A stretch of DNA of 28,523 nt, taken from Candidatus Kaiserbacteria bacterium (GTDB lineage Bacteria > Patescibacteriota > Minisyncoccia > Phycocordibacterales > UBA918). Position 1 is the stretch's first letter. The number at the start of each line of letters is the position of its first letter. The notes beneath the pieces were generated by a model. It worked only from the letters and a program-made list of their open reading frames with translations. It ran no database searches and was not told the DNA's origin. Shown here piece after piece: positions 16,976-28,339 of this stretch. Location of the stretch: contig JAHFMK010000001.1 of the NCBI GenBank assembly GCA_023264435.1, forward strand, positions 1 through 28,523, given 5' to 3'. A program made the translations under genes and the position numbers.

Positions 16976-18211
16976 CTATTCATACCGCAATGCTTCAATA
17001 GGGCTTTTCTTTGATGCTTGATGTGCAGGATAAATACCAAATATGAGACCTACAACCACAGACACTCCAACGCCAATAAATGCTCCAAGTACAGGGAATG
17101 TAAATGACCAATTTTCTGCAATGGTGCGAGATAACACCACCGCAGTAATGGCAGAAACCAATGCGCCAAATATAATTCCAATCACTCCCCCAATACCTGT
17201 GAGTATGATTGCTTCGGTGAGAAATTGTCGCAGAATATCTTTGCTTCGTGCACCGAGTGCTTTTCGTAAACCAATTTCTTTGGTACGTTCTGACACAGAA
17301 ACAAGCATAATATTCATAATGCCAATACCACCCACCACCAATGATATCGCAACCACAGCAACCAAAAACGAAGTAAATACGTTCACAATTGTTTCAATAC
17401 GCTTAATAACATCTTCTTGTGTTTGTACATTAAAATCGTCATCTTCACCAAAACCAATATGGTGTGCTTCACGCATGGTGAGCACAATATCATACGCCAT
17501 CTTCAACGCATTCTCAGGTGCATCAGCTTGTATCATCACTTCATTATAGAAATCATTTCCCGTAATGTATGTCTGTGCTGTTGTATATGGAATAACCACC
17601 ATTTTGTTTATGGTTAAGGGCCCTACATCTGAGGTGTTTGTAAAAACACCAACGATTTTAAATTTTTTATCTTTAATTTGAATGTATTCGCCCACAGCAT
17701 TTCCATTACCAAAAACATCTTCTTTGATTGTATCTCCGATAATCGCCACTCGTGCATTTTGATTTATATCATCTTGTGTGAAGAGCGAACCATGTGCTAA
17801 CGTGAGATTAAGCATATCAGAAATAAAATCTGCTGAACCTCCAAATACAAGTGCTCGAAAACGCTGTCCGCGATACTCAATGGGATCAGGAACCATAACT
17901 GATGGTGCAACCATTTTAAGATTTGGGACATTTTCTTTTCGTTTCAGAAGCTCTACATCATGCTTCGTAAGTGAACGTGCAAACAATACATTCGTGATAT
18001 CGGTACTATCCTTACCTGGACGAAGAATCACGGTTTCAGGACCCAGTCCACTCACTTGATCGAGAATGAGTTTTTGTGCTCCTTCACCCAAAGACATAAT
18101 GATGATGATTGCAGAAATACCAATGACAATACCGAGAATAGTAAGTGCCGATCGTGTTAATTGCGAGCTTAATCCTCGAAGTGCTGTAATAAAAATATGT
18201 TTAAATTTCAT
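16976..18211 (-). CDS. MacB/YknZ-type ABC transporter permease
   Basis: RSALTILGIVIGISAII, large extracytoplasmic domain, VGGIGIMNIMLVSVSERTKEIGLRKALGA, QFLTEA, GIYPAHQASKKSPIEALRYE. Confidence 0.95.
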   Translation of the reverse strand: MKFKHIFITALRGLSSQLTRSALTILGIVIGISAIIIIMSLGEGAQKLILDQVSGLGPETVILRPGKDSTDITNVLFARSLTKHDVELLKRKENVPNLKMVAPSVMVPDPIEYRGQRFRALVFGGSADFISDMLNLTLAHGSLFTQDDINQNARVAIIGDTIKEDVFGNGNAVGEYIQIKDKKFKIVGVFTNTSDVGPLTINKMVVIPYTTAQTYITGNDFYNEVMIQADAPENALKMAYDIVLTMREAHHIGFGEDDDFNVQTQEDVIKRIETIVNVFTSFLVAVVAISLVVGGIGIMNIMLVSVSERTKEIGLRKALGARSKDILRQFLTEAIILTGIGGVIGIIFGALVSAITAVVLSRTIAENWSFTFPVLGAFIGVGVSVVVGLIFGIYPAHQASKKSPIEALRYE

Positions 18212-18215
18212 ATTA

Positions 18216-18935
18216 CTATTTCGTAAAATCTTTATTCGCGTTCCTTCTATTCAATATAGGTTTATCACTTTCAATTGCACCATCTACCAAATAAATCATT
18301 CTGTCTGCATGTTCTGCGGTAAATGTTTCATGCGTAATAAGAATAACCGTATGTCCCAATTCATCATGCAATCGCTGTAGCGTTTGCATCACTGCCTGTC
18401 CTGTCTTTGAATCCAAATTCCCTGTTGGTTCATCCGCGAAAATAACCTTTGGCTCATTGACGAGAGCACGTGCAATGGCGGTTCTTTGTTTTTCTCCACC
18501 TGAAAGTTTATTTGTTTCATATCCCAAACGATGGGACATGCCAACAATTTCAACCACCTCCTCAACTCGTTTTTTCCATTCCTGTTCAGGACGACCTGAA
18601 TACAATAATGGTAATTGCACATTCTCAAATACAGTTTGTCTCGGAAGTAAATTAAATGACTGAAATACAAAACCCATTTCTATATTTCGAATACGTGCTA
18701 TTTCATCATCAGTATGCTCCTCAAAACGTCTTCCATTAAATCGATATAATCCCGTGGTTAATTCTGACAAGAATCCAAGAATATGGAGTAATGTTGATTT
18801 ACCTGATCCCGAAGGCCCCATAATAGAAACAAATTCACCCGCCTCAATCGTAAATGATACATCTTTTAAGACAGTAGTATTGATTTCATCACCATAGAAA
18901 GTTTTTTCTAACTTTTCTACCTCAAAAAGACTCAT
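18216..18935 (-). CDS. ABC transporter ATP-binding subunit (MacB/YknY/LolD type)
   Basis: GPSGSGKST, GFVFQSFNLL, LSGGEKQR, IFADEPTGNLD, ILITHE. Confidence 0.96.
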   Translation of the reverse strand: MSLFEVEKLEKTFYGDEINTTVLKDVSFTIEAGEFVSIMGPSGSGKSTLLHILGFLSELTTGLYRFNGRRFEEHTDDEIARIRNIEMGFVFQSFNLLPRQTVFENVQLPLLYSGRPEQEWKKRVEEVVEIVGMSHRLGYETNKLSGGEKQRTAIARALVNEPKVIFADEPTGNLDSKTGQAVMQTLQRLHDELGHTVILITHETFTAEHADRMIYLVDGAIESDKPILNRRNANKDFTK

Positions 18936-18940
18936 ATTAT

Positions 18941-20548
18941 TTAGTTCTGCTTAATTTTTGCAATTGCTTGTTCATTTGCAAACGTTATGATAGGTTCCCC
19001 ACCACTCAGTCCACTTAAAACCTCAGTCATACCATTTGACCCTCGAAGTCCTGTGGTAATTGGCACTTCTGATACTTCGGTTCCATTCTGTATCACACGA
19101 ACAAACTTTCCTTCTTTGTTTTCATAAATAGCCCGTGTTGGAATGGCGATTACATTATGTCGTGTAGCGGTTGTTATCGTAATTTCAGTAGTGAGCCCAT
19201 CCTTGATCATTTCATTTTCCTTATCAAACGCAAGCGTTACCTCAAAAATACGAACCCCCGACACGACGGTAGCATTTGGTGCAACTTTTGTTACCACAGC
19301 AGTAAACGTTTTTCCATCATACGCATCAAACGTAACCACTGCAGTATCTCCAACAGAAACCTCTGCGATATCCACCTCAGAAATATTTACCGTAAGCTCA
19401 AAATCATTTTTTGAGCTTATAGAAAGTACAGGTATGCCTGCGGTAATAATCTGCCCCACATCTGCATTGACCGCAGTGACAACTCCTGCAAAGGGTGCTT
19501 TTATTATTGTATTTTCATATGCAACCTGTGCTTGTGAAAGTGAAGCGTGCATCTGCTCAACCAGAGCACGTTGTGCATTTACTCGTTCGTCACGTGCTGA
19601 ACTTACTACTTGTGTTAATTGAGACTTACTTAGCAGAAATTGAGCTTCCGCTGATTTCACTGCGTTTTCAGCACTTGCGACAGCAAGATTGCGTGTTTCA
19701 ACCACCGCATGATATGCATTCAAATTAGTAAGATAACTACTCGACCGAGTATTAGGAATAGGAATTTCCCATTCTGTTCGTTTCGCAAAATTATCAGGAA
19801 ATTGCAAATATAAACCACGACTACCAATTGGTGATGGTGAAATGGTTGATACCGAATCTGTACCAATCTCCAAACCAGTCACACGATACGATGACCCTGA
19901 AGGGGCATTTGAATCATACAACGCTACTCGATATACACCATCTTCGGTGCCATGATATGTTCCCGTAATGGTAGGACTTACATACGAATATGGAGAATCG
20001 CTTCGTTCATCACTTATCAGATACGCCTGAAGACCAGTTGAACGCAGTGTTTTTTCTGCGTTAGATACAAGCTGATTTTGTTGTGCAATAACATCTGCAA
20101 GGTTTTGTTTTGCATTTTCAAGTAAGGTTTCTACTGAGACCACCGACGATTCTGTCACTGCACGACTCTTATCATCTGCTCCTGAGACTAACTCATGGAG
20201 ACGTGCCTCCTCTGCTTGTAATCTTGACTGTGCCAACAGAATGTCCGTTTTTTGTTGTGTTGCCTCAGTTGTCATAAGTACATCACCTGAACTGACAACA
20301 TCACCTTCATGTACGAGAATGCTCGTAACCTTACCTCCTCGTTCAAACGCAAGATTGACTGCATGTGTGGGTTGCACATATCCTGTTTCTGTAACTTCCT
20401 CAATCACATCGCCATGCTCAACAACACCTGTTTCAACGCCATCGGGCAATGTTTTTGGTCGAGTGTGCATATACCAATACCCCAATCCAATTACTATAAT
20501 ACTTAAAAAAAATGATATATATTTTTTTGAAAGGATATTTTTTTTCAT
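18941..20548 (-). CDS. Membrane-fusion/adaptor protein (MacA/YknX-like) with an extra domain in the helical hairpin (535 aa)
   Basis: TM anchor, lipoyl half (GGKVTSILVHEGDVV), coiled coil, beta-rich insert, coiled coil, IKAPFAGVV, beta-barrel (VNISEVDI..VSVGD..VTFDAY), membrane-proximal domain (IPTRAI..TEVLSGL). Start reassigned to ATG 20548. Confidence 0.9.
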   Translation of the reverse strand: MKKNILSKKYISFFLSIIVIGLGYWYMHTRPKTLPDGVETGVVEHGDVIEEVTETGYVQPTHAVNLAFERGGKVTSILVHEGDVVSSGDVLMTTEATQQKTDILLAQSRLQAEEARLHELVSGADDKSRAVTESSVVSVETLLENAKQNLADVIAQQNQLVSNAEKTLRSTGLQAYLISDERSDSPYSYVSPTITGTYHGTEDGVYRVALYDSNAPSGSSYRVTGLEIGTDSVSTISPSPIGSRGLYLQFPDNFAKRTEWEIPIPNTRSSSYLTNLNAYHAVVETRNLAVASAENAVKSAEAQFLLSKSQLTQVVSSARDERVNAQRALVEQMHASLSQAQVAYENTIIKAPFAGVVTAVNADVGQIITAGIPVLSISSKNDFELTVNISEVDIAEVSVGDTAVVTFDAYDGKTFTAVVTKVAPNATVVSGVRIFEVTLAFDKENEMIKDGLTTEITITTATRHNVIAIPTRAIYENKEGKFVRVIQNGTEVSEVPITTGLRGSNGMTEVLSGLSGGEPIITFANEQAIAKIKQN

Positions 20549-20555
20549 GGAGCGT

Positions 20556-20561
20556 ATTATA
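20556..20561 (-). promoter_or_regulatory. Consensus -10 box (TATAAT) 7 nt before ATG 20548; internal promoter for the ABC module
   Basis: Minus strand reads TATAAT-acgctcc-ATG in the ~80-nt gap after the MFS gene. Confidence 0.55.
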
Positions 20562-20630
20562 TTTGAAAGCAACAAACGTATTCTCTCTCGATATTCATTA
20601 TACTCTGTGCACCACATAATTGAGTAGTGG

Positions 20631-22142
20631 TTATGCACCGATTATCACAGCTTCTACTCTTTTTTTTCTCTTTGTATCACGGAGAAAGAGTGCCACAACA
20701 ACTCCTGATGCCATTACACTCGATGCAATAAGAAATACGGTGCCATACGCAGCAACCTGTGCTTTCAGAATAACAAGTGTGCTCACCATTTGAAGTGTTT
20801 GCGGATCAGTGGTATTGAGAACAGTGTCCTGCCCAATCTGGAGTACATTCGACTCAATGAGATTACTAAGAATTGTACTAAAAAATGCGATACCAACTGC
20901 TCCTGCTATATTACGAACAAGATTGAGTACTGCGGAAGAGACACCAACTTCATTTGCAGGTACTGCATTCGTTGCAGCAGCGGTGAGTGGTGCCATTCCC
21001 AATCCGAGTCCGAGTGCAAAAATAATAAGTGGTATAGTGAGGTCAAGAGACGTAGTCTTGACATCAAGTCCAGAAAATAGATAAATACCGAGGGCTGAAA
21101 TCGCCATACCTGCACCGGCAAGATACCGTAAAGGGACTACCTGCGACAACTTACCTCCGAGCGGCGCAGCGACAAACATTGCAAGTGCCATTGGTACAAA
21201 TAAAAGTCCTGCTTGTGTTGCATCAAATCCTAAATATGTTTGTGCGAACACGGGAATAAGAAACATTGCTCCCATCATGCCTGAAAAAGAAATGAAGGAG
21301 AGTATGAGTACATTTGTAAATACAGGGTTAGAGAATAGTTTCAAATCAACAATTGGATCTTTCTCTCGTTTCTCCACTCTGTAAAATAAAATTGAAAAAA
21401 TAAGTACCACACTATATGCACTTATACTTTCAAATGATACCCATCCCCAGTCTCGGCCACGTTCAAGCACAAGCACGAGTGATGAGAGTACTATGCCCAA
21501 TATGAGTGCCCCTTTATAGTCAAATCCTTTATTCGTATCAACAGGTTTATCATGTGGTAAATACCAAAGTGTCATAAAAATACCAAGAATACCAATTGGT
21601 AAATTGATATAGAAAAGCCACCGCCATGAAAAATTATCAATCAAGGGACCACCTATGAGTGGTCCCAGTGCTGCTGACACGGCAAATGAAGCAGACCAAA
21701 TACCGAGTGCCTGTGTTCGTGCATTTGGGTCAGTAAATGTTCGTGCAATAATCGCCATTGCGGTGGGATATACCGCTGCACCCACCAAGCCTTGCACCAC
21801 CCGAAAAAAGACCATTGATGAGAGATTCCACGCAAGACCTGCAAAAACTGAGATAAACGTAAATCCTACAAAACTCCACAAATAAATTACTCGATTTCCT
21901 AACTTGTCACCCAACTTACCGAACACAGGTACAAAAACCGCGTTTGAAATAATATACGCAGTTGCAATCCATCCTGCACTCGACACTGAAATTTTAAAGT
22001 CATCGATCATGCCTGGCAATCCTAGATTAACCACCGTTCTATCGAGACCAATAAGCAGTGTTCCCACCATAACGGTAATGAGCACGAGCCATGGTGAGTG
22101 TGATGGCTTTGTGGTATCTATTATCGTTGTGTTCTGTGCCAT
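20631..22142 (-). CDS. DHA2 (EmrB/QacA-type) MFS efflux pump
   Basis: LDRTVVNLGLP, GKLGDKLGNR, RVVQGLVG, GPLIGG..SWRWLFYINLPIG, LNLVRNIAGAVGIA; about 14 TM. Confidence 0.95.
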   Translation of the reverse strand: MAQNTTIIDTTKPSHSPWLVLITVMVGTLLIGLDRTVVNLGLPGMIDDFKISVSSAGWIATAYIISNAVFVPVFGKLGDKLGNRVIYLWSFVGFTFISVFAGLAWNLSSMVFFRVVQGLVGAAVYPTAMAIIARTFTDPNARTQALGIWSASFAVSAALGPLIGGPLIDNFSWRWLFYINLPIGILGIFMTLWYLPHDKPVDTNKGFDYKGALILGIVLSSLVLVLERGRDWGWVSFESISAYSVVLIFSILFYRVEKREKDPIVDLKLFSNPVFTNVLILSFISFSGMMGAMFLIPVFAQTYLGFDATQAGLLFVPMALAMFVAAPLGGKLSQVVPLRYLAGAGMAISALGIYLFSGLDVKTTSLDLTIPLIIFALGLGLGMAPLTAAATNAVPANEVGVSSAVLNLVRNIAGAVGIAFFSTILSNLIESNVLQIGQDTVLNTTDPQTLQMVSTLVILKAQVAAYGTVFLIASSVMASGVVVALFLRDTKRKKRVEAVIIGA

Positions 22143-22145
22143 ATA

Positions 22146-22787
22146 TTATTTAATATATATCCATGTACGAGCTGACATACCTGTTTTTAATTCAGGATAT
22201 TTTGAAACATCAAACGATACATAGATATTAAATTTTTTGATTGGACGTTTGTCCGAAATAGAAAATGCAATACCTGTTTCACTTGAAGCAGAGCTAATGT
22301 CATCAACCGTCCCAACATATTCATTTTGAGGAAATGCATCAACAGTAAATTTTACTCGTTGTCCTACTGCTACTTTACTCAGTCCACCAGTTTCTTCTAC
22401 TTGGGCAACCACACGCATCTTCGTATCAGCAATGACAGAGAGTAGAGTTTGTCCAGGAGCATAATACGAACCAATTACTTTTGGTACACCATCAACAACA
22501 CCATCTTCTTTTGCGTACAAAGTCTCCGAACCAACAAGTGCAACTGGTGTACTTTTCTGAACTCGTTCACCATCTTGTACATAGATAGTATTAAGTATTC
22601 CTGGTGCAGAAGGCGTAATGTGGACAATCGGTGCTTCTAGATATGACTTCTCAACAGACACAACGCCTACCGTTGATTGCCAGTAAATATATCCTGCCAA
22701 AGAACCAAAAATCACCACCAGTGCACTTACACTTTGAAACCATGGTGTTCGTATCAGACTTACTTTTTTTTCATTTATATGAGACAT
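22146..22787 (-). CDS. Short EmrA/HlyD-like adaptor lacking the alpha-helical hairpin
   Basis: TM, lipoyl halves joined directly (QDGERVQKSTPVALVG-SET-LYAKEDGVV), beta-barrel (VAVGQRVKFTVDAFP, LKTGMSA). Confidence 0.85.
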   Translation of the reverse strand: MSHINEKKVSLIRTPWFQSVSALVVIFGSLAGYIYWQSTVGVVSVEKSYLEAPIVHITPSAPGILNTIYVQDGERVQKSTPVALVGSETLYAKEDGVVDGVPKVIGSYYAPGQTLLSVIADTKMRVVAQVEETGGLSKVAVGQRVKFTVDAFPQNEYVGTVDDISSASSETGIAFSISDKRPIKKFNIYVSFDVSKYPELKTGMSARTWIYIK

Positions 22788-22803
22788 AGATTTACAATGA
22801 TTA

Positions 22804-24081
22804 TTAGATACTTACTTCATCACCAACTGAAAGACCTGCTACCACCTCAGTATTATCGAGATCATTGATACCAATTGTTACTTCTCGTTCAATAACACCA
22901 CTCGCAGTTTTTAGTTGTACATAATACTTTCCTTCACGCTTATAAATCGCACGATTAGGAATCATCACCGCAACATCTTTGAGAGACATACTTGTTGAGA
23001 GTTCAATTGCAGGAATATTTGGTGTTGCAATTTCTCCGAGTGAAATACGTATCGCAGTGATTTTTCCATCACTCGGTGCCAGAATGCGACGATTATTAAA
23101 TGCTGATTGTGCGATCTGCAATGCCCCACGCGCACTCTCCACTTGTGCCTGTGCCGTTGCAACATCTTCTGGTCGTGCAGATGAAACCACCGATGCAAGA
23201 TTTGCTTCAGCTTGACTGACTGTTGATTGAGCAGTTGCAATTGTCTGATTTTTTGTTTGAAGTGCTGATTGATATGCGGATTCCCTTGTTACATAATCAG
23301 TTGCCTTCTTATTTGGAAGAGAAATTATCCATGTGCGATTTGCACGAGCATCTTTAGGAAATTGAATATACAATCCAGAATTTCCGAGTGGTTGTGGTGT
23401 AATAATAAATGCTGATTCAGTACCCTCAACAAGTCCTGATGTTCGATATGATAAACCTGACTGTGCAGCAGAAGCGTATGTTTTTACTATAATATTCCCC
23501 TCTTTTCCAAGCGTATAACTCCCCGTTATCTTTGGAGCTTCTTCTTCTTCAGTAGAATCAATTTTCTCTGGATAGGCCTGTGGTGACACATTAAGAAGAG
23601 CGGTATACGCATTTTGTACCAATACAGATTGTTGTTGTGTCACTTCCGCCAAATTGACTTTTGCATTTTCAAGTGCTGTGCGTGCAATATCAATAGTTGG
23701 TCCTGTCGCACCATTGAGTACCTTCTGATAATTTGCGTTTGCAATACTCAAGGCTGCCTCTGCCTGCATAATTGGTCCTTGTGTATTTTCCTGATCTAGA
23801 GATGCAAGTACCATATCTTTTTTTACCTCATCACCAACGTGTACCGGAATGTCATCAATACGGCCTCCTGCAAGAAATCCAAGTGAGAGATGTTGTGCAG
23901 ATTTTGGACTCATGTCTTTATTGAGCGAGATACTCCCAGAAGTTGCTCGAATAAATTGCGATACTGAAATACTTGTACGTTGCATATCGTGCAATACATA
24001 GAGAATACCCCCTGCAATAACAAGCGACACCGTAATAACGAGTAATGGTTTATGTAAAAATGCAATAAGTTTTGTTTTCAT
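22804..24081 (-). CDS. HlyD-family adaptor with hairpin insert but lacking the beta-barrel domain
   Basis: TM, GGRIDDIPVHVGDEVKK, coiled coil, beta-rich insert, coiled coil, ILAPSDGKI, then directly IPNRAIY...TEVVAGLSVGD. Confidence 0.85.
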   Translation of the reverse strand: MKTKLIAFLHKPLLVITVSLVIAGGILYVLHDMQRTSISVSQFIRATSGSISLNKDMSPKSAQHLSLGFLAGGRIDDIPVHVGDEVKKDMVLASLDQENTQGPIMQAEAALSIANANYQKVLNGATGPTIDIARTALENAKVNLAEVTQQQSVLVQNAYTALLNVSPQAYPEKIDSTEEEEAPKITGSYTLGKEGNIIVKTYASAAQSGLSYRTSGLVEGTESAFIITPQPLGNSGLYIQFPKDARANRTWIISLPNKKATDYVTRESAYQSALQTKNQTIATAQSTVSQAEANLASVVSSARPEDVATAQAQVESARGALQIAQSAFNNRRILAPSDGKITAIRISLGEIATPNIPAIELSTSMSLKDVAVMIPNRAIYKREGKYYVQLKTASGVIEREVTIGINDLDNTEVVAGLSVGDEVSI

Positions 24082-24083
24082 GA

Positions 24084-24503
24084 TTATGCTTCAATTATAC
24101 GTGCAATAATTCTTTCTAATTCTGCTTTATCGTTCACTGAAAGACACGCAGTTATCTCATCAAGAATTTTTGTTTTTTGTTTTTGTAGTCCATTAATTTG
24201 TTTTTTTGCTTTTTGAGTCAAGCGAATATGCACTACTCTTCGGTCTTCATCATCACGTGTTCTATGAACTAACTCTTGCTTCTCCAACTTCTCAATAAGC
24301 GCGGTTGCTGAAGGTGGCTTGACGTTAAGATGATGTGCAATTGCGTCCATACTCTGGTTCTTTGCTTGTCCCACAAACCACAAAACCTCTAGTTGTGCGA
24401 TGGTTAAATCATGTTTTAGATTATTATCCCGCATACGCTCATTAATCTTGCGTCTTAGATGTAAGAGTAATTCGGGCAAACGTGATGTATTCGTATTATT
24501 CAT
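24084..24503 (-). CDS. MarR family transcriptional regulator
   Basis: LTIAQLEVL, SMDAIAHHLNVKPPSATALIEKLEKQELVHR...DRRVVHIRLT. Confidence 0.95.
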   Translation of the reverse strand: MNNTNTSRLPELLLHLRRKINERMRDNNLKHDLTIAQLEVLWFVGQAKNQSMDAIAHHLNVKPPSATALIEKLEKQELVHRTRDDEDRRVVHIRLTQKAKKQINGLQKQKTKILDEITACLSVNDKAELERIIARIIEA

Positions 24504-24561
24504 AGTTAGTGTGCCTAATAGTTAGGCACACTAACTATATAGGAAATTGAAAATATGTCAA
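24502..24561 (-). promoter_or_regulatory. marR promoter (TTGACA-N16-TATAGT) and 37-bp palindromic operator
   Basis: -35 at 24556-24561 and -10 at 24534-24539 (minus strand); atagttagtgtgcctaa-tag-ttaggcacactaactat (24502-24538) has perfect 17-bp arms. Confidence 0.8.
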
Positions 24562-25008: not shown

Positions 25009-26040
25009 CTAAAAATTAAAGACGGGAGGAATAATACCCAGTATAACCAGACTGTTAATGAGATTAAATACTGCAAAAAGAATGACAATCAATCCTGCTG
25101 ATTTGAAAAAAATACCTGACCGTGCATTCTTGGCAATACTGAATGAACCAAAACTAATGAGTGAAAGAACGGGCAATGTACCGAGTGCAAATACAAGCAT
25201 CGTAAGACCGCCACTTATAAAACTTCCCGTCGAAAGTGCATAAAGTTGCATTGACTGTGTAAATCCACACGGGAGAAAAAATGTTGCCACGCCCACAAGA
25301 AGTGGTGTAAGTGTATGGTTGAGTGTTGCGACACCATGTGCACGACGTGCAATAAACTTTGGTACGGTGATTTGCCATTTTTTTGCACCCTGAAATATAT
25401 CTAAAAGATTGATACCGAGCATAAGCATGACAACAGCAATAATGACATTGAGTGTAACGGTCGCAATCGTATTCAATGTAAACGCTGATCCCAATGCACC
25501 AATAACCCCGCCAAAAATAAAGAAAGATACGATACGCCCTGCATGAAACATGAGTTGTGGTTTCACTCGACTTCCCTCTTTTGCAAATGTTGCAGACATT
25601 GAAAGCAAAAGTCCCCCCACTACCGCCATGCATGTAGAAAGTGATGCGATAACACCAATCACAAATGCTGTACCGTATGTCACCTCACCTCCACTCACCA
25701 CATTCACGATACCCATATTTTGGAGCGCAATAAAAACTGCAATAAAGACAAGTGCAACTGGTACCGCAGTTTTGAAGTCCTGCCACTGTGGTGCATGTAC
25801 TTGTTGTTCGACAGACACTGTATAGCCATGTGATAAAAGCGGTGCAGTCAATTCCTTCGCAATTACTTCGGGAGACTTTCCCTCAAACGCACCAACAATG
25901 TCAACAGAATGATTTTTGAGATGTGCCTTTACTTCATGCACATTCGACAAACTCCCGAGTGTCTGTTCTGTCAGTAGTACACACGCATTGCAATGCATAC
26001 CATGCACATGAAAAGTATATTTTTGCTCAGTTGTTTTCAT
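25009..26040 (-). CDS. HMA domain fused to a DsbD_2/TauE-SafE-like membrane domain
   Basis: VHGMHCNAC metal-binding loop; LSTCMAVVGG, FHAGRI, FFLPCGFTQ, FALGTLP. Confidence 0.88.
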   Translation of the reverse strand: MKTTEQKYTFHVHGMHCNACVLLTEQTLGSLSNVHEVKAHLKNHSVDIVGAFEGKSPEVIAKELTAPLLSHGYTVSVEQQVHAPQWQDFKTAVPVALVFIAVFIALQNMGIVNVVSGGEVTYGTAFVIGVIASLSTCMAVVGGLLLSMSATFAKEGSRVKPQLMFHAGRIVSFFIFGGVIGALGSAFTLNTIATVTLNVIIAVVMLMLGINLLDIFQGAKKWQITVPKFIARRAHGVATLNHTLTPLLVGVATFFLPCGFTQSMQLYALSTGSFISGGLTMLVFALGTLPVLSLISFGSFSIAKNARSGIFFKSAGLIVILFAVFNLINSLVILGIIPPVFNF

Positions 26041-26041
26041 A

Positions 26042-28339
26042 TTATAATAATTTTATATGCTTTAAACGTAATGAATTAAGCACCACCGTTACACTCTCAA
26101 ATGCCATGATTGACCCCGCAATGGCAGGGCTAAGTGTCCACCCATACACAGGAAAGAGAATACCCGCTGCAATCGGGATACCCACTGAATTGTATCCGAA
26201 TGACCAAATGAGGTTTTGCCATACCGTGCGATTGGTTCGTTTTGCGAGATTGACTGCCTCGGCAACTTTGCCAATGTCACCATTGAGTAAAACAATGTCC
26301 GAACTCTCAATTGCAATGTCTGAGCCATCACTCATAGATATTGCTACATCAGCTTGTGCAAGTGCTGGTGAGTCGTTGACGCCATCTCCAATCATCGCCA
26401 CCTTCAATCCTTTTTTTTGAAGGTCAGCAATGATACGTAATTTATCAGCGGGCTTCACCTCGGTATGCACCTCATCAATACCAAGATGCATCGCTACCGC
26501 TTCCCCTGTTTTTTTATTATCACCTGTTGCCATCACAACACGAAGCCCCAATGCTTTGAGTTTTGCAATTTCTGCCTGTGCATCTGCTTTTATCGTGTCA
26601 TGAATCTTCACGAGTGCGAGTACTGTTTTTGTATCAGCCAAATATAATTCTCGTCCACTTTCAAATTGAGCACCATCAAATTGCTTTTTCAAAGCATCTT
26701 CACTGACTCCCGTTACTTCACTCATATACCCAATTGATCCGAGATAATAAGTATTTCCTTCATAATGTGCCTTAAGTCCCTTACCGGTAATTTCTGAAAT
26801 ATCAGAAACAGATATGTTTTGTACTTTTGATACGCTGAGCCATTCTGCAATACTTGCAGAAATTGGATGTCGTGATGACTTTGTCATGGCGTAAATAAGC
26901 GATTGATGAAATGTTGCTTTTGTACTCTTCTCGTCACCCACATCATGTGCACAAAATATTCCTTCTACTGACAACTTATTCTCAGTGAGTGTACCCGTCT
27001 TATCAAAAACAATTGCCTGCACACCTGCAAGTTTTTCAAGACTTTCTGCATTTTTGATAAGAATACCCCGTCTTGCACCCGTTCCAACACCCGTGATAAT
27101 AGCGGTTGGCGTTGCGAGCCCCAAAGCACAGGGACACGCAATCACGAGGACCGCCATCATGGTAGAAAGTGCAAATGCGAGTGCTTTTGCGAAGCCCATT
27201 GAGGCAGGTGCAAAAAACATCCATGATGCAAACGTAATCACCGCAATCACGAGTACAATATATGTAAACACACCCGATATTTTATCAGCAGTTTTTTCTA
27301 TTGGTGCTTTTGAATTTTGTGCATCTTCAACAATCGTAATGATGTGTGAGAGTGCAGTATCCTTTGCGTCTTTCTCTACACGTATTTTAAGGATTCCCTG
27401 AAAATTTTGCGTTCCTGCAAAGACATTCGCCCCTACAAGCTTATCGACTGGTACCGACTCCCCCGTAAGGTTTGACTCATCCACGCTCGACGTGCCGAAG
27501 GCTACCACACCGTCCACAGGGATACGTTCATTTGGCTTTACAATTACCACATCGCCAATAACCACCTGCTCAATGGGAACTTCTATCTCACTCCCATTTC
27601 GCTCAACGAGTGCAGTCTTGCTTGTGAGCTCAGCGAGTTTTTGCAACGCTTCATTTGTCTTTCGTTTTGCATTTGTTTCAAAATATTGTCCCAGTGCAAT
27701 GAGTCCAATCACCACAATGACGACATCATAAAAATTTGAGGTCACCTCAAGGTAAGGTGCAAGTGTTTCCTCAAATGCAGTCACTGCAAAGGAATAGATG
27801 AATGCAACGATAGTAGAAATACCGACAAGCACATCCATGTTGGCAATACCCGTGCGAAGGAATATCCATACCGCTTTAATGTATCGCCGTCCAATACCAA
27901 ATAATACGAACGTTGCGAAGATAGGCATGAGATGATGAAACACTTCATATACTGTCGTCGACATTTTTGGTACAAGTGCATTATCAGCAAGTGCTTCCCA
28001 AAACATCATCACAAACGAGAAGACGACCATAGGAATAACAAATCTCATTTCAAATGCAATCGCCTGTTCACCCATCGCATGATGCATGGTGCGGTGATCC
28101 ATTCCGTTCATTGTGTCTTTTTTTGCATCATCCTCAAATATATACCCCAATGGTGCAATATCACGATTCATCATTTCAAGTGAAAGCTCTGGACCTGAAA
28201 ATGTTACCTTTGCTTTCTCATTGGCAAGCCCCACCGAAACAGAGGCAACACCTGGAACTTTACCCACTTTATCTTGAATGAGTGTGACACAACTCGCACA
28301 GTGCATCCCCTTAATCGTATATATTTTGGCGGTACTCAT
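26042..28339 (-). CDS. copA: Copper-type heavy-metal P1B ATPase
   Basis: GMHCASC, ANMDVLV, TGES, IACPCALGLATP, FDKTGTLT, HP, TGDN, GDGVNDSPAL, GYN in the penultimate TM. Confidence 0.93.
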   Translation of the reverse strand: MSTAKIYTIKGMHCASCVTLIQDKVGKVPGVASVSVGLANEKAKVTFSGPELSLEMMNRDIAPLGYIFEDDAKKDTMNGMDHRTMHHAMGEQAIAFEMRFVIPMVVFSFVMMFWEALADNALVPKMSTTVYEVFHHLMPIFATFVLFGIGRRYIKAVWIFLRTGIANMDVLVGISTIVAFIYSFAVTAFEETLAPYLEVTSNFYDVVIVVIGLIALGQYFETNAKRKTNEALQKLAELTSKTALVERNGSEIEVPIEQVVIGDVVIVKPNERIPVDGVVAFGTSSVDESNLTGESVPVDKLVGANVFAGTQNFQGILKIRVEKDAKDTALSHIITIVEDAQNSKAPIEKTADKISGVFTYIVLVIAVITFASWMFFAPASMGFAKALAFALSTMMAVLVIACPCALGLATPTAIITGVGTGARRGILIKNAESLEKLAGVQAIVFDKTGTLTENKLSVEGIFCAHDVGDEKSTKATFHQSLIYAMTKSSRHPISASIAEWLSVSKVQNISVSDISEITGKGLKAHYEGNTYYLGSIGYMSEVTGVSEDALKKQFDGAQFESGRELYLADTKTVLALVKIHDTIKADAQAEIAKLKALGLRVVMATGDNKKTGEAVAMHLGIDEVHTEVKPADKLRIIADLQKKGLKVAMIGDGVNDSPALAQADVAISMSDGSDIAIESSDIVLLNGDIGKVAEAVNLAKRTNRTVWQNLIWSFGYNSVGIPIAAGILFPVYGWTLSPAIAGSIMAFESVTVVLNSLRLKHIKLL

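Follow-up and report, generated by a model that had tools for sequence, protein, structure and literature searches.

Background

Reviews show a beta-barrel in every type of adaptor (membrane fusion protein) that they illustrate (PMC4446572). The named adaptor variants in reviews lack only the helical hairpin (BesA) or the membrane-proximal domain, MPD (EmrA, HlyD). This work concerns two adaptor genes of Candidatus Kaiserbacteria bacterium in a stretch of 28,523 nucleotides (GenBank assembly GCA_023264435.1, contig JAHFMK010000001.1, positions 1 to 28,523; “the window” below). They lie in one operon between a gene of a MarR-family regulator and a gene of a drug-type efflux permease of the major facilitator superfamily (MFS). 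Adaptor A has a long capped hairpin and no beta-barrel; adaptor B has a beta-barrel, but neither hairpin nor MPD. We propose that the two proteins make up one functional adaptor. Paired, hairpin-less and MPD-less adaptors are each already known. To our knowledge, A represents the first adaptor family that has lost the barrel.

The EmrAB(-TolC) system of Escherichia coli (8zal/8zar; PMC13139468) resembles the operon in that a MarR-type regulator, a transmembrane-anchored adaptor and a DHA2 pump are encoded together. In EmrAB-TolC the barrel of EmrA and its conserved loop hold EmrB. This pump-contacting loop (beta-CL, residues 294-317) traps the periplasmic helix bundle of EmrB (PMC13139468). 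However, EmrA is a single protein that combines barrel, lipoyl domain and long hairpin and docks to TolC. In the window the hairpin belongs to a second protein, A, which comes from another adaptor lineage and carries an additional tip domain. A search of the window's genome, which is 85% complete, for the OEP family (TolC-type genes) gave no match.

TriABC-OpmH of Pseudomonas aeruginosa (6vej) has two different adaptor genes per pump, and the roles of TriA and TriB are reported not to be equivalent: one serves to stabilise the distal partner, the other to activate the pump (PMC13328181). The window likewise has two distinct adaptor genes and one pump in one operon. However, the pump of TriABC belongs to the resistance-nodulation-division (RND) superfamily and works with an outer-membrane factor in a diderm cell, whereas the pump here is an MFS permease and no TolC-type gene was found in the 85%-complete genome. 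Furthermore, TriA and TriB are both full-length proteins with four domains, while A and B each lack domains that the other has.

Three other groups of adaptors are relevant. Fused dimeric adaptors, such as DSY0927 of Desulfitobacterium hafniense, join a hairpin-less MFS-type unit and a hairpin-bearing unit (PMC4338810). BesA of Borrelia (4kks; PMC3807786) and YhbJ-type proteins of Bacillota share with B the hairpin-less core of lipoyl domain and barrel. BesA differs from B in having an MPD and in working with an RND pump. YhbJ-type proteins are apparently the sole adaptors of their operons, while B nearly always follows a second adaptor. Finally, MacA, YknX and Spr0693 (5nik, 3fpp, 5xu0) represent a lineage of four-domain transmembrane-anchored adaptors encoded beside genes of ATP-binding cassette (ABC) ATPases and FtsX permeases.

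Literature searches, which had partial coverage, yielded no description of a barrel-less adaptor family, of this operon in Patescibacteria, or of a stepwise complementary loss of domains. Those for a two-adaptor MFS pump or for adaptors of Patescibacteria returned only citations of TriABC and general reviews, which does not prove that such a description is absent.

Results

Adaptor A lacks the beta-barrel

The genes of the operon and the domains of both adaptors are as follows (positions in the window; AF2, AlphaFold2). Adaptor C, a paralogue of A encoded nearby, is included for comparison.

24084..24503, minus strand: MarR-family regulator, first gene of the operon (Pfam MarR, E 2.1e-15)
22804..24081, minus strand: adaptor A, 425 aa; transmembrane anchor, lipoyl domain, long hairpin with beta-rich tip domain, MPD; without beta-barrel
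23977..24048, minus strand: A, N-terminal transmembrane helix, residues 12-35 (AF2; translation checked)
23797..23892, minus strand: A, first lipoyl half, residues 64-95 (alignment to C, AF2)
23593..23781, minus strand: A, ascending hairpin helix, residues 101-163 (AF2)
23317..23577, minus strand: A, beta-rich tip (“cap”) domain between the hairpin helices, residues 169-255 (AF2, with a predicted local distance difference test score, pLDDT, of 93-97; aligns with C)
23095..23295, minus strand: A, descending hairpin helix, residues 263-329 (AF2)
22993..23088, minus strand: A, second lipoyl half, residues 332-363 (alignment to C, AF2)
22969..22992, minus strand: A, junction SMSLKDVA, 8 residues in place of the barrel of C (alignment; contigs cross it without indels)
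22807..22968, minus strand: A, MPD, residues 372-425, homologous to C497-550 (BLASTP; AF2 gives the MPD as 367-424)
22146..22787, minus strand: adaptor B, 213 aa; transmembrane anchor, hairpin-less lipoyl domain, beta-barrel; without MPD
22668..22745, minus strand: B, N-terminal transmembrane helix, residues 15-40 (AF2)
22431..22628, minus strand: B, hairpin-less lipoyl domain, residues 54-119 (AF2)
22155..22415, minus strand: B, beta-barrel, residues 125-211 (Pfam, profile alignment, AF2, fold search)
22239..22295, minus strand: B, flexible conserved barrel loop, residues 165-183, motif FSISDKRP (alignment, AF2)
20631..22142, minus strand: MFS efflux permease of the DHA2 family (EmrB-like), 503 aa
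18941..20638, minus strand: adaptor C, full-length capped paralogue of A, part of a neighbouring MacB-type pump

BLASTP aligns A with C in two segments: A65-363 with C94-409 (38% identity, E 5e-55) and A372-423 with C497-550 (37% identity). Between them, eight residues of A (364-371) occupy the place of 87 residues of C (410-496) that form the beta-barrel, and the same gap appears in the multiple alignment. The preliminary description of the locus had claimed that A passes in frame from the second lipoyl half to the motif IPNRAIY without a barrel. This is borne out, but the motif IELSTS that marks the lipoyl half lies at 22990-23007 and not at 22978-22998, about 10 nt away; IPNRAIY comes nine residues further on. 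The AlphaFold2 model of A, built on 120 homologues, has a pLDDT of 91.4 and no barrel. Its two hairpin helices have approximately 63-67 residues each, and the hairpin is about 95 angstroms long.

The other parts of A are those of an adaptor. The lipoyl domains of both A and B are supported by profile matches to adaptor and biotinyl/lipoyl chains from the PDB, and the NCBIfam profiles of CzcB/NccB and IhpB match the MPD of A through their C-terminal part. In both proteins the transmembrane helix (residues 12-35 of A and 15-40 of B) is hydrophobic, with basic residues on its N-terminal side. In A it is followed by a poorly conserved linker of about 30 residues. By sequence profile the closest solved relatives of A are the TriAB fusion (best), MexJ and MacA. 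A fold search returned only adaptors, with MacA (best) and EmrA closest; its TM-scores are low (0.25-0.31) since the model is elongated, and the search does not inform on the tip domain. A belongs to a MacA/YknX-like lineage of capped adaptors. It differs from MacA, YknX and Spr0693 in the missing barrel, in the tip domain of about 85 aa and in being encoded with an MFS pump.

The tip domain has no Pfam match, and an ESM Atlas search with this domain alone (residues 165-262) gave no usable features. A beta-rich tip domain of about 85 aa is present in both capped adaptors of the window (23317-23577 in A and about 19740-19975 in C). Nearly all full-length relatives have it too, both those with B and an MFS gene as partners and those with ABC and FtsX genes.

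Standard profiles recognize A and B poorly. Against TIGR01730 (HlyD / RND_mfp adaptors; NCBIfam cut-off 94.9 bits) A scores 58.5 and B 39.4 bits, whereas C scores 172 bits. Against the models of EmrA/EmrK (TIGR00998; NF011715), with a cut-off of 390.8 bits, A, which has the hairpin and no barrel, scores 24.4 bits; B, which has barrel and lipoyl domain but neither hairpin nor MPD, scores 40.9 bits. The beta-barrel expected of a member of the adaptor family is missing in A and present in B. Annotation is affected, as both proteins fall below the curated adaptor thresholds; the current names of A are “biotin/lipoyl-binding protein” or “AcrA”.

The junction is present in independent assemblies

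Read support was taken from Logan contigs of three sequencing runs, which represent three samples of one groundwater study; the DNA of the window is present in groundwater metagenomes. Contigs from all three runs cross the junction in A and the boundary between A and B with no indel or joint. Examples that cross the junction are record 11 of run X2 (22245-23511), record 4 of X1 (22954-23112) and record 17 of X3 (22930-23188). Since independent contigs cross the junction without indels, the assembly deletion that the preliminary description had wished to see checked is excluded.

The A gene is present as two haplotypes in runs X1 and X2. They differ by a few percent and share the same groundwater samples, as seen within 22100-24100 from contig pairs that show 0 and 8 differences, so that the population is not clonal.

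Adaptor B and the pump

The preliminary description had given B a lipoyl domain and a beta-barrel but no hairpin and no MPD, and the Pfam matches and the structure model agree with it. Pfam HlyD_D23/HlyD_3 match residues 89-172 of B. The AlphaFold2 model (pLDDT 91.2) has a lipoyl domain without a helical hairpin, and the chain ends at residue 213 without an MPD. The best fold match of B is EmrA in EmrAB-TolC (8zar_D, TM-score 0.71 on the query), followed by the hairpin-less BesA and by MacA. The best PDB match by sequence is also EmrA (Aquifex aeolicus, 4tko).

The barrel of B contains a flexible loop (pLDDT 61), and the columns F175-R181 of it are nearly invariant in the family. In an alignment of hidden Markov models this loop directly follows the segment aligned with residues 214-289 of EmrA. 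In EmrA this is the position of the pump-contacting loop. Like EmrA, B as the putative pump-proximal unit has no MPD. B resembles EmrA minus its hairpin and belongs to an EmrA/YhbJ-like lineage.

By architecture and context B fits the YhbJ-type pattern: a protein of about 210-240 aa with a transmembrane helix, a hairpin-less lipoyl domain and a barrel, encoded between genes of a MarR regulator and a DHA2 MFS pump. B-like proteins of 210-237 aa from Bacillota (ESM Atlas clusters) carry the Pfam domain BSH_YhbJ. The permease scores 327.7 bits against TIGR00711 (DHA2, EmrB/QacA), which is above the cut-off of 230.2 bits. Its closest solved relative is EmrB (8zal_J, E 8.6e-57), with residues 21-457 aligned, including the loop after the thirteenth helix. 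To judge by sequence, the pump is EmrB-like.

The gene order is conserved

The best 120 homologues of A, with identities from 91% down to about 40%, are all 322-438 aa long. They form two length classes. The long class (about 420 aa) keeps the MPD, the short class (about 355-365 aa) stops right after the second lipoyl half, and none has a barrel in the alignment. Seventeen columns are invariant across the 120 homologues, and many more are nearly so. The barrel columns are unfilled in all 71 complete barrel-less adaptors found upstream of B. The B family matches that of A, with homologues of about 213 aa. Homologues bear the labels Patescibacteria, Paceibacterota or Minisyncoccia.

When one genome per species was scanned with the A profile, 37 loci were obtained, 30 of which are A-type loci with downstream sequence; three loci from the genus of the window bring the number of A-anchored loci to 33. 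The order A-B-MFS occurs in all 33 (30 of 30 in the species scan). The MarR gene precedes A in 31 of them (28 of 30) and is missing in L027 and L043. The two further loci of the genus, in genomes G003 and G012, also have the order MarR-A-B-MFS. The preliminary description had held that a strain-specific deletion, or an A without B, would refute a split adaptor. Orthologues of A also lack the barrel, and B accompanies A at each of the 33 loci.

A metagenome scan with the B profile gave at least 490 confirmed loci, 80 of which were kept. In these, an adaptor is encoded upstream of B in 70 of the 72 loci with room upstream, and an MFS gene follows B in every locus with room downstream. A MarR gene stands before the adaptor in almost all of the related loci. 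Overall, the order A-B-MFS is conserved in more than 100 loci, and the barrel-less architecture is seen in more than 100 independent protein clusters and more than 70 independent loci. The MarR-A-B-MFS arrangement is conserved and selected, and is found in many Patescibacteria.

In the window the intergenic gaps are 2 nt (MarR-A), 16 nt (A-B) and 3 nt (B-MFS). The median A-B gap is 6-11 nt in the reduced forms and 24 nt in the full-length state; the B-MFS gap is mostly 3-8 nt in the reduced forms and up to 150 nt in the full-length state.

Among 41 related genomes, A-type genes and B-type genes are confined to the same three, G000, G003 and G012. In genome G030 the order is a full-length adaptor of 535 aa, then B, then the MFS gene. 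The module is patchy across the relatives of the window, yet its parts travel together.

The barrel was probably lost once, the MPD repeatedly

Eighty complete adaptors partnered with B were compared. Nine are full-length, in 19 the barrel is missing, and in 52 neither barrel nor MPD is present. The more distant B loci have a full-length capped adaptor, with barrel and MPD, upstream of B. A tree was built on the shared columns only, i.e., the columns of the barrel and the MPD were excluded, and four long-branch rows (L124, L129, L110, L004) were omitted from the careful tree. All barrel-less adaptors fall together on one side of a branch (ultrafast bootstrap, UFBoot, 84; Shimodaira-Hasegawa-like approximate likelihood ratio test, SH-aLRT, 75) and are nested among full-length proteins. 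The state of the barrel needs one change in 81% of the bootstrap trees, and the presence of the MPD needs six changes on the tree, at least three of which are forced by well-supported branches.

Thus the barrel was probably lost once, and on a parsimonious reading the MPD was lost repeatedly afterwards, at least 3-6 times. We read the events in this order because every other adaptor has the barrel and because the MPD, where A retains it, is homologous with that of C. On this reading, a full-length A was already paired with B before the barrel was lost. The repeated loss of the MPD fits what is known of MFS pumps, which have little periplasmic mass and whose EmrA-type adaptors have no MPD (PMC4446572, PMC13139468).

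The ratio of nonsynonymous to synonymous substitution rates (dN/dS) is 0.06-0.20 in the barrel-less A genes, the retained MPD included. This is the range of the full-length relatives. The barrel-less A genes are under purifying selection.

The history of these genes is probably a complementary degeneration of an adaptor pair and not the fission of one gene. We considered fission of a single adaptor gene and rejected it: the lipoyl domain is complete in A as well as in B, each protein has a transmembrane anchor of its own, and A and B are only distantly related (23% identity, E 0.012, for B against C).

Natural fusions

A search of 1.8 billion representative proteins with the B profile revealed proteins that carry in one chain a complete B-type unit and, after it, a hairpin-bearing adaptor unit (P0331, P0359, P0334, P0339, P0375, P0379, P0384). 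P0331 sits in a MarR-MFS-fusion operon and P0359 behind two ABC half-transporters. The fused relatives carry PF25997. DSY0927 is a fusion of the same kind, which has been read as an indication that adaptors of this type work as heterodimers whose members have distinct roles (PMC4338810). The fusions differ from the pair in the window: their B-type unit comes first, they have one transmembrane anchor, their hairpin half keeps its barrel, and they have no tip domain. In the window there are two separate genes, each with its own anchor, and the hairpin-bearing A is without a barrel. One protein (P0349, 705 aa) is a three-part fusion, with a multi-pass membrane domain in addition to a B-type and a hairpin-bearing adaptor unit.

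Discussion

We suggest, with a probability of roughly 60%, that A and B are one functional adaptor in which the pump is held by B and the distal arm comes from A; their physical co-assembly is an inference. A stronger form of this reading is an obligate hetero-oligomer, in which gripping and activation of the pump by the barrel of B are split from a distal wall-crossing structure, the capped hairpin of A. This form is tentative, and we would give it slightly less than an even chance. The pair looks like the division of labour of TriA and TriB carried through to the loss of domains.

Most likely, B would form a ring, or pump-proximal tier, on the extracytoplasmic face of the EmrB-like pump and would hold it through the barrel and the conserved loop. 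A, tethered by its own transmembrane helix and the linker of about 30 residues, would join B through the lipoyl tier and, as the distal wall-facing part, project its hairpin of about 95 angstroms with the tip domain into the wall. The hairpins may form a closed conduit. The complex could be A3B3 with the two proteins side by side, as in TriAB, or could consist of stacked rings; the fusions and the analogy with TriAB favour the first arrangement. Such a system probably arose from a full-length capped adaptor paired with B, which lost its barrel, probably once, and then, repeatedly, an MPD for which MFS pumps have no use.

Several points weigh against this proposal. B may suffice for the function of the pump, with A as an accessory. 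One B-only locus (L117, Ga0335085_10297683) consists of MarR, B and MFS genes with no upstream adaptor, and L114 is possibly alike; YhbJ-type adaptors of Bacillota appear to work singly. A side-by-side A3B3 ring leaves only three barrels and three hairpins, which is unseen in solved pumps, and stacked rings fit poorly with an ancestral upstream adaptor that had its own barrel and MPD. In addition, support for a single loss of the barrel is moderate (84/75). The B of L117 has a longer N-terminal tail (241 aa); at L114 there is no recognisable adaptor within 344 nt upstream of B.

The strongest rival, which we nevertheless regard as unlikely, is that B alone is the adaptor of the pump, like YhbJ with YhcA in Bacillus, and A is a co-regulated but mechanistically separate envelope protein. 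A could then be, for example, a wall-spanning or wall-binding stalk made of the capped hairpin, or the partner of another transporter. This would agree with the B-only loci, with the BSH_YhbJ domain of the Bacillota proteins, and with the co-induction of yhbI (MarR), yhbJ and yhcA (MFS) of Bacillus subtilis by benzoate (PMC2788229). Moreover, the domains lost from A are precisely those that touch a pump. However, a barrel-less A was never found away from B and the MFS gene (33 of 33 loci), and the barrel of A was lost only in a lineage where B supplies one. The tight spacing of the genes speaks for a joint function as well, as do the natural fusions, in which B-type and hairpin-bearing units form one polypeptide next to MFS pumps. 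Finally, A retains a conserved lipoyl domain, and this is the tier through which adaptors oligomerise.

It is far less probable that A is a functionless, decaying remnant of a full-length adaptor left after B had taken over. The stepwise loss of domains, first the barrel and then repeatedly the MPD, could be seen as decay, but a decay of A is contradicted by the selection data, with dN/dS values in the range of full-length relatives. The invariant columns of the 120 homologues and the confident model of A (pLDDT 91) do not suggest a decaying protein either, and the deletions are clean, with no leftover coding DNA and an A-B gap of about 5 nt in the shortest forms.

An artefact of assembly or binning, or a strain-specific deletion, is refuted, as contigs of three runs cross the junction without indels and the same architecture recurs in the independent clusters and loci counted above; we found no point in its support.

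A large barrel-less family under purifying selection, always beside a barrel-bearing partner, means that the roles of an adaptor are separable onto two polypeptides. It is a natural experiment that bears on two questions: for what reason long hairpins are kept by bacteria that have no outer membrane, and how a single pump is shared by two adaptors that are not identical (the TriAB problem). If A and B do form an obligate hetero-oligomer, then A would be the first adaptor family that functions without a beta-barrel, and the operon would show the function of an adaptor dissected by nature in bacteria that have no outer membrane. The series from full-length through barrel-less to barrel-less and MPD-less adaptors would then document a complementary loss of domains.

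Genomic context

The window is contig C81 of a genome of 0.63 Mb; the genomes of its relatives have 0.5-1.1 Mb. The remaining features near the operon are as follows.

24534..24561, minus strand: best sigma-70-like promoter match, TTGACA-16-TATAGT, 11/12, about 30 nt upstream of the MarR start
18216..18935, minus strand: ABC ATPase of the MacB-type pump
16976..18211, minus strand: MacB/FtsX permease of the MacB-type pump

The promoter-like site at 24534..24561 is a consensus match only, and such matches are no more numerous in the region than in shuffled sequence.

Adaptor C, whose probable real start is Met31 at 20548, belongs to the MacB-type pump together with the ABC ATPase and the FtsX permease, and not to the A-B-MFS module. 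Adaptors of the C type, which contain the barrel, also adjoin ABC-FtsX genes in L005, L046, L048 and L049. The whole MacB-type pump (16976-20638) directly follows the MFS gene in the window. This adjacency is absent from G003, G012 and the other A-type loci and is particular to the genome of the window. We considered whether A might serve the MacB-type pump and rejected this, since the C-ABC-FtsX genes follow the MFS gene only in this genome.

One metagenome locus (L104, contig Ga0210057_1015768) contains a full-length adaptor, B, MFS, an ABC ATPase and an FtsX permease, and no second long adaptor. Its single long adaptor might serve both pumps.

Upstream of the operon, on the same strand (25009-28339), are genes of a heavy-metal P-type ATPase with an HMA domain and of a membrane protein with HMA and DsbD_2 domains. 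The neighbourhood of the A-B-MFS genes looks like an export and detoxification island.

Two of the compared loci have doubtful assignments. The locus of G012 (L132, contig C62) has a gene set identical to that of L030 (DASTSP010000062.1), and its contig of 7.3 kb has a G+C content of 60%, while the values are about 40% for the window and 43% for G003, though all three are placed in one genus. Mis-binning or a recent transfer of the module is possible. The record of the other locus (L019, CAYPVH010000010.1) bears the title “uncultured Gammaproteobacteria bacterium”. The BLAST values of the MarR, A and B products of L019 equal those of a Paceibacterota contig (L020), and the A proteins of the two are identical over the columns of the tree; the bin label of L019 is probably wrong.

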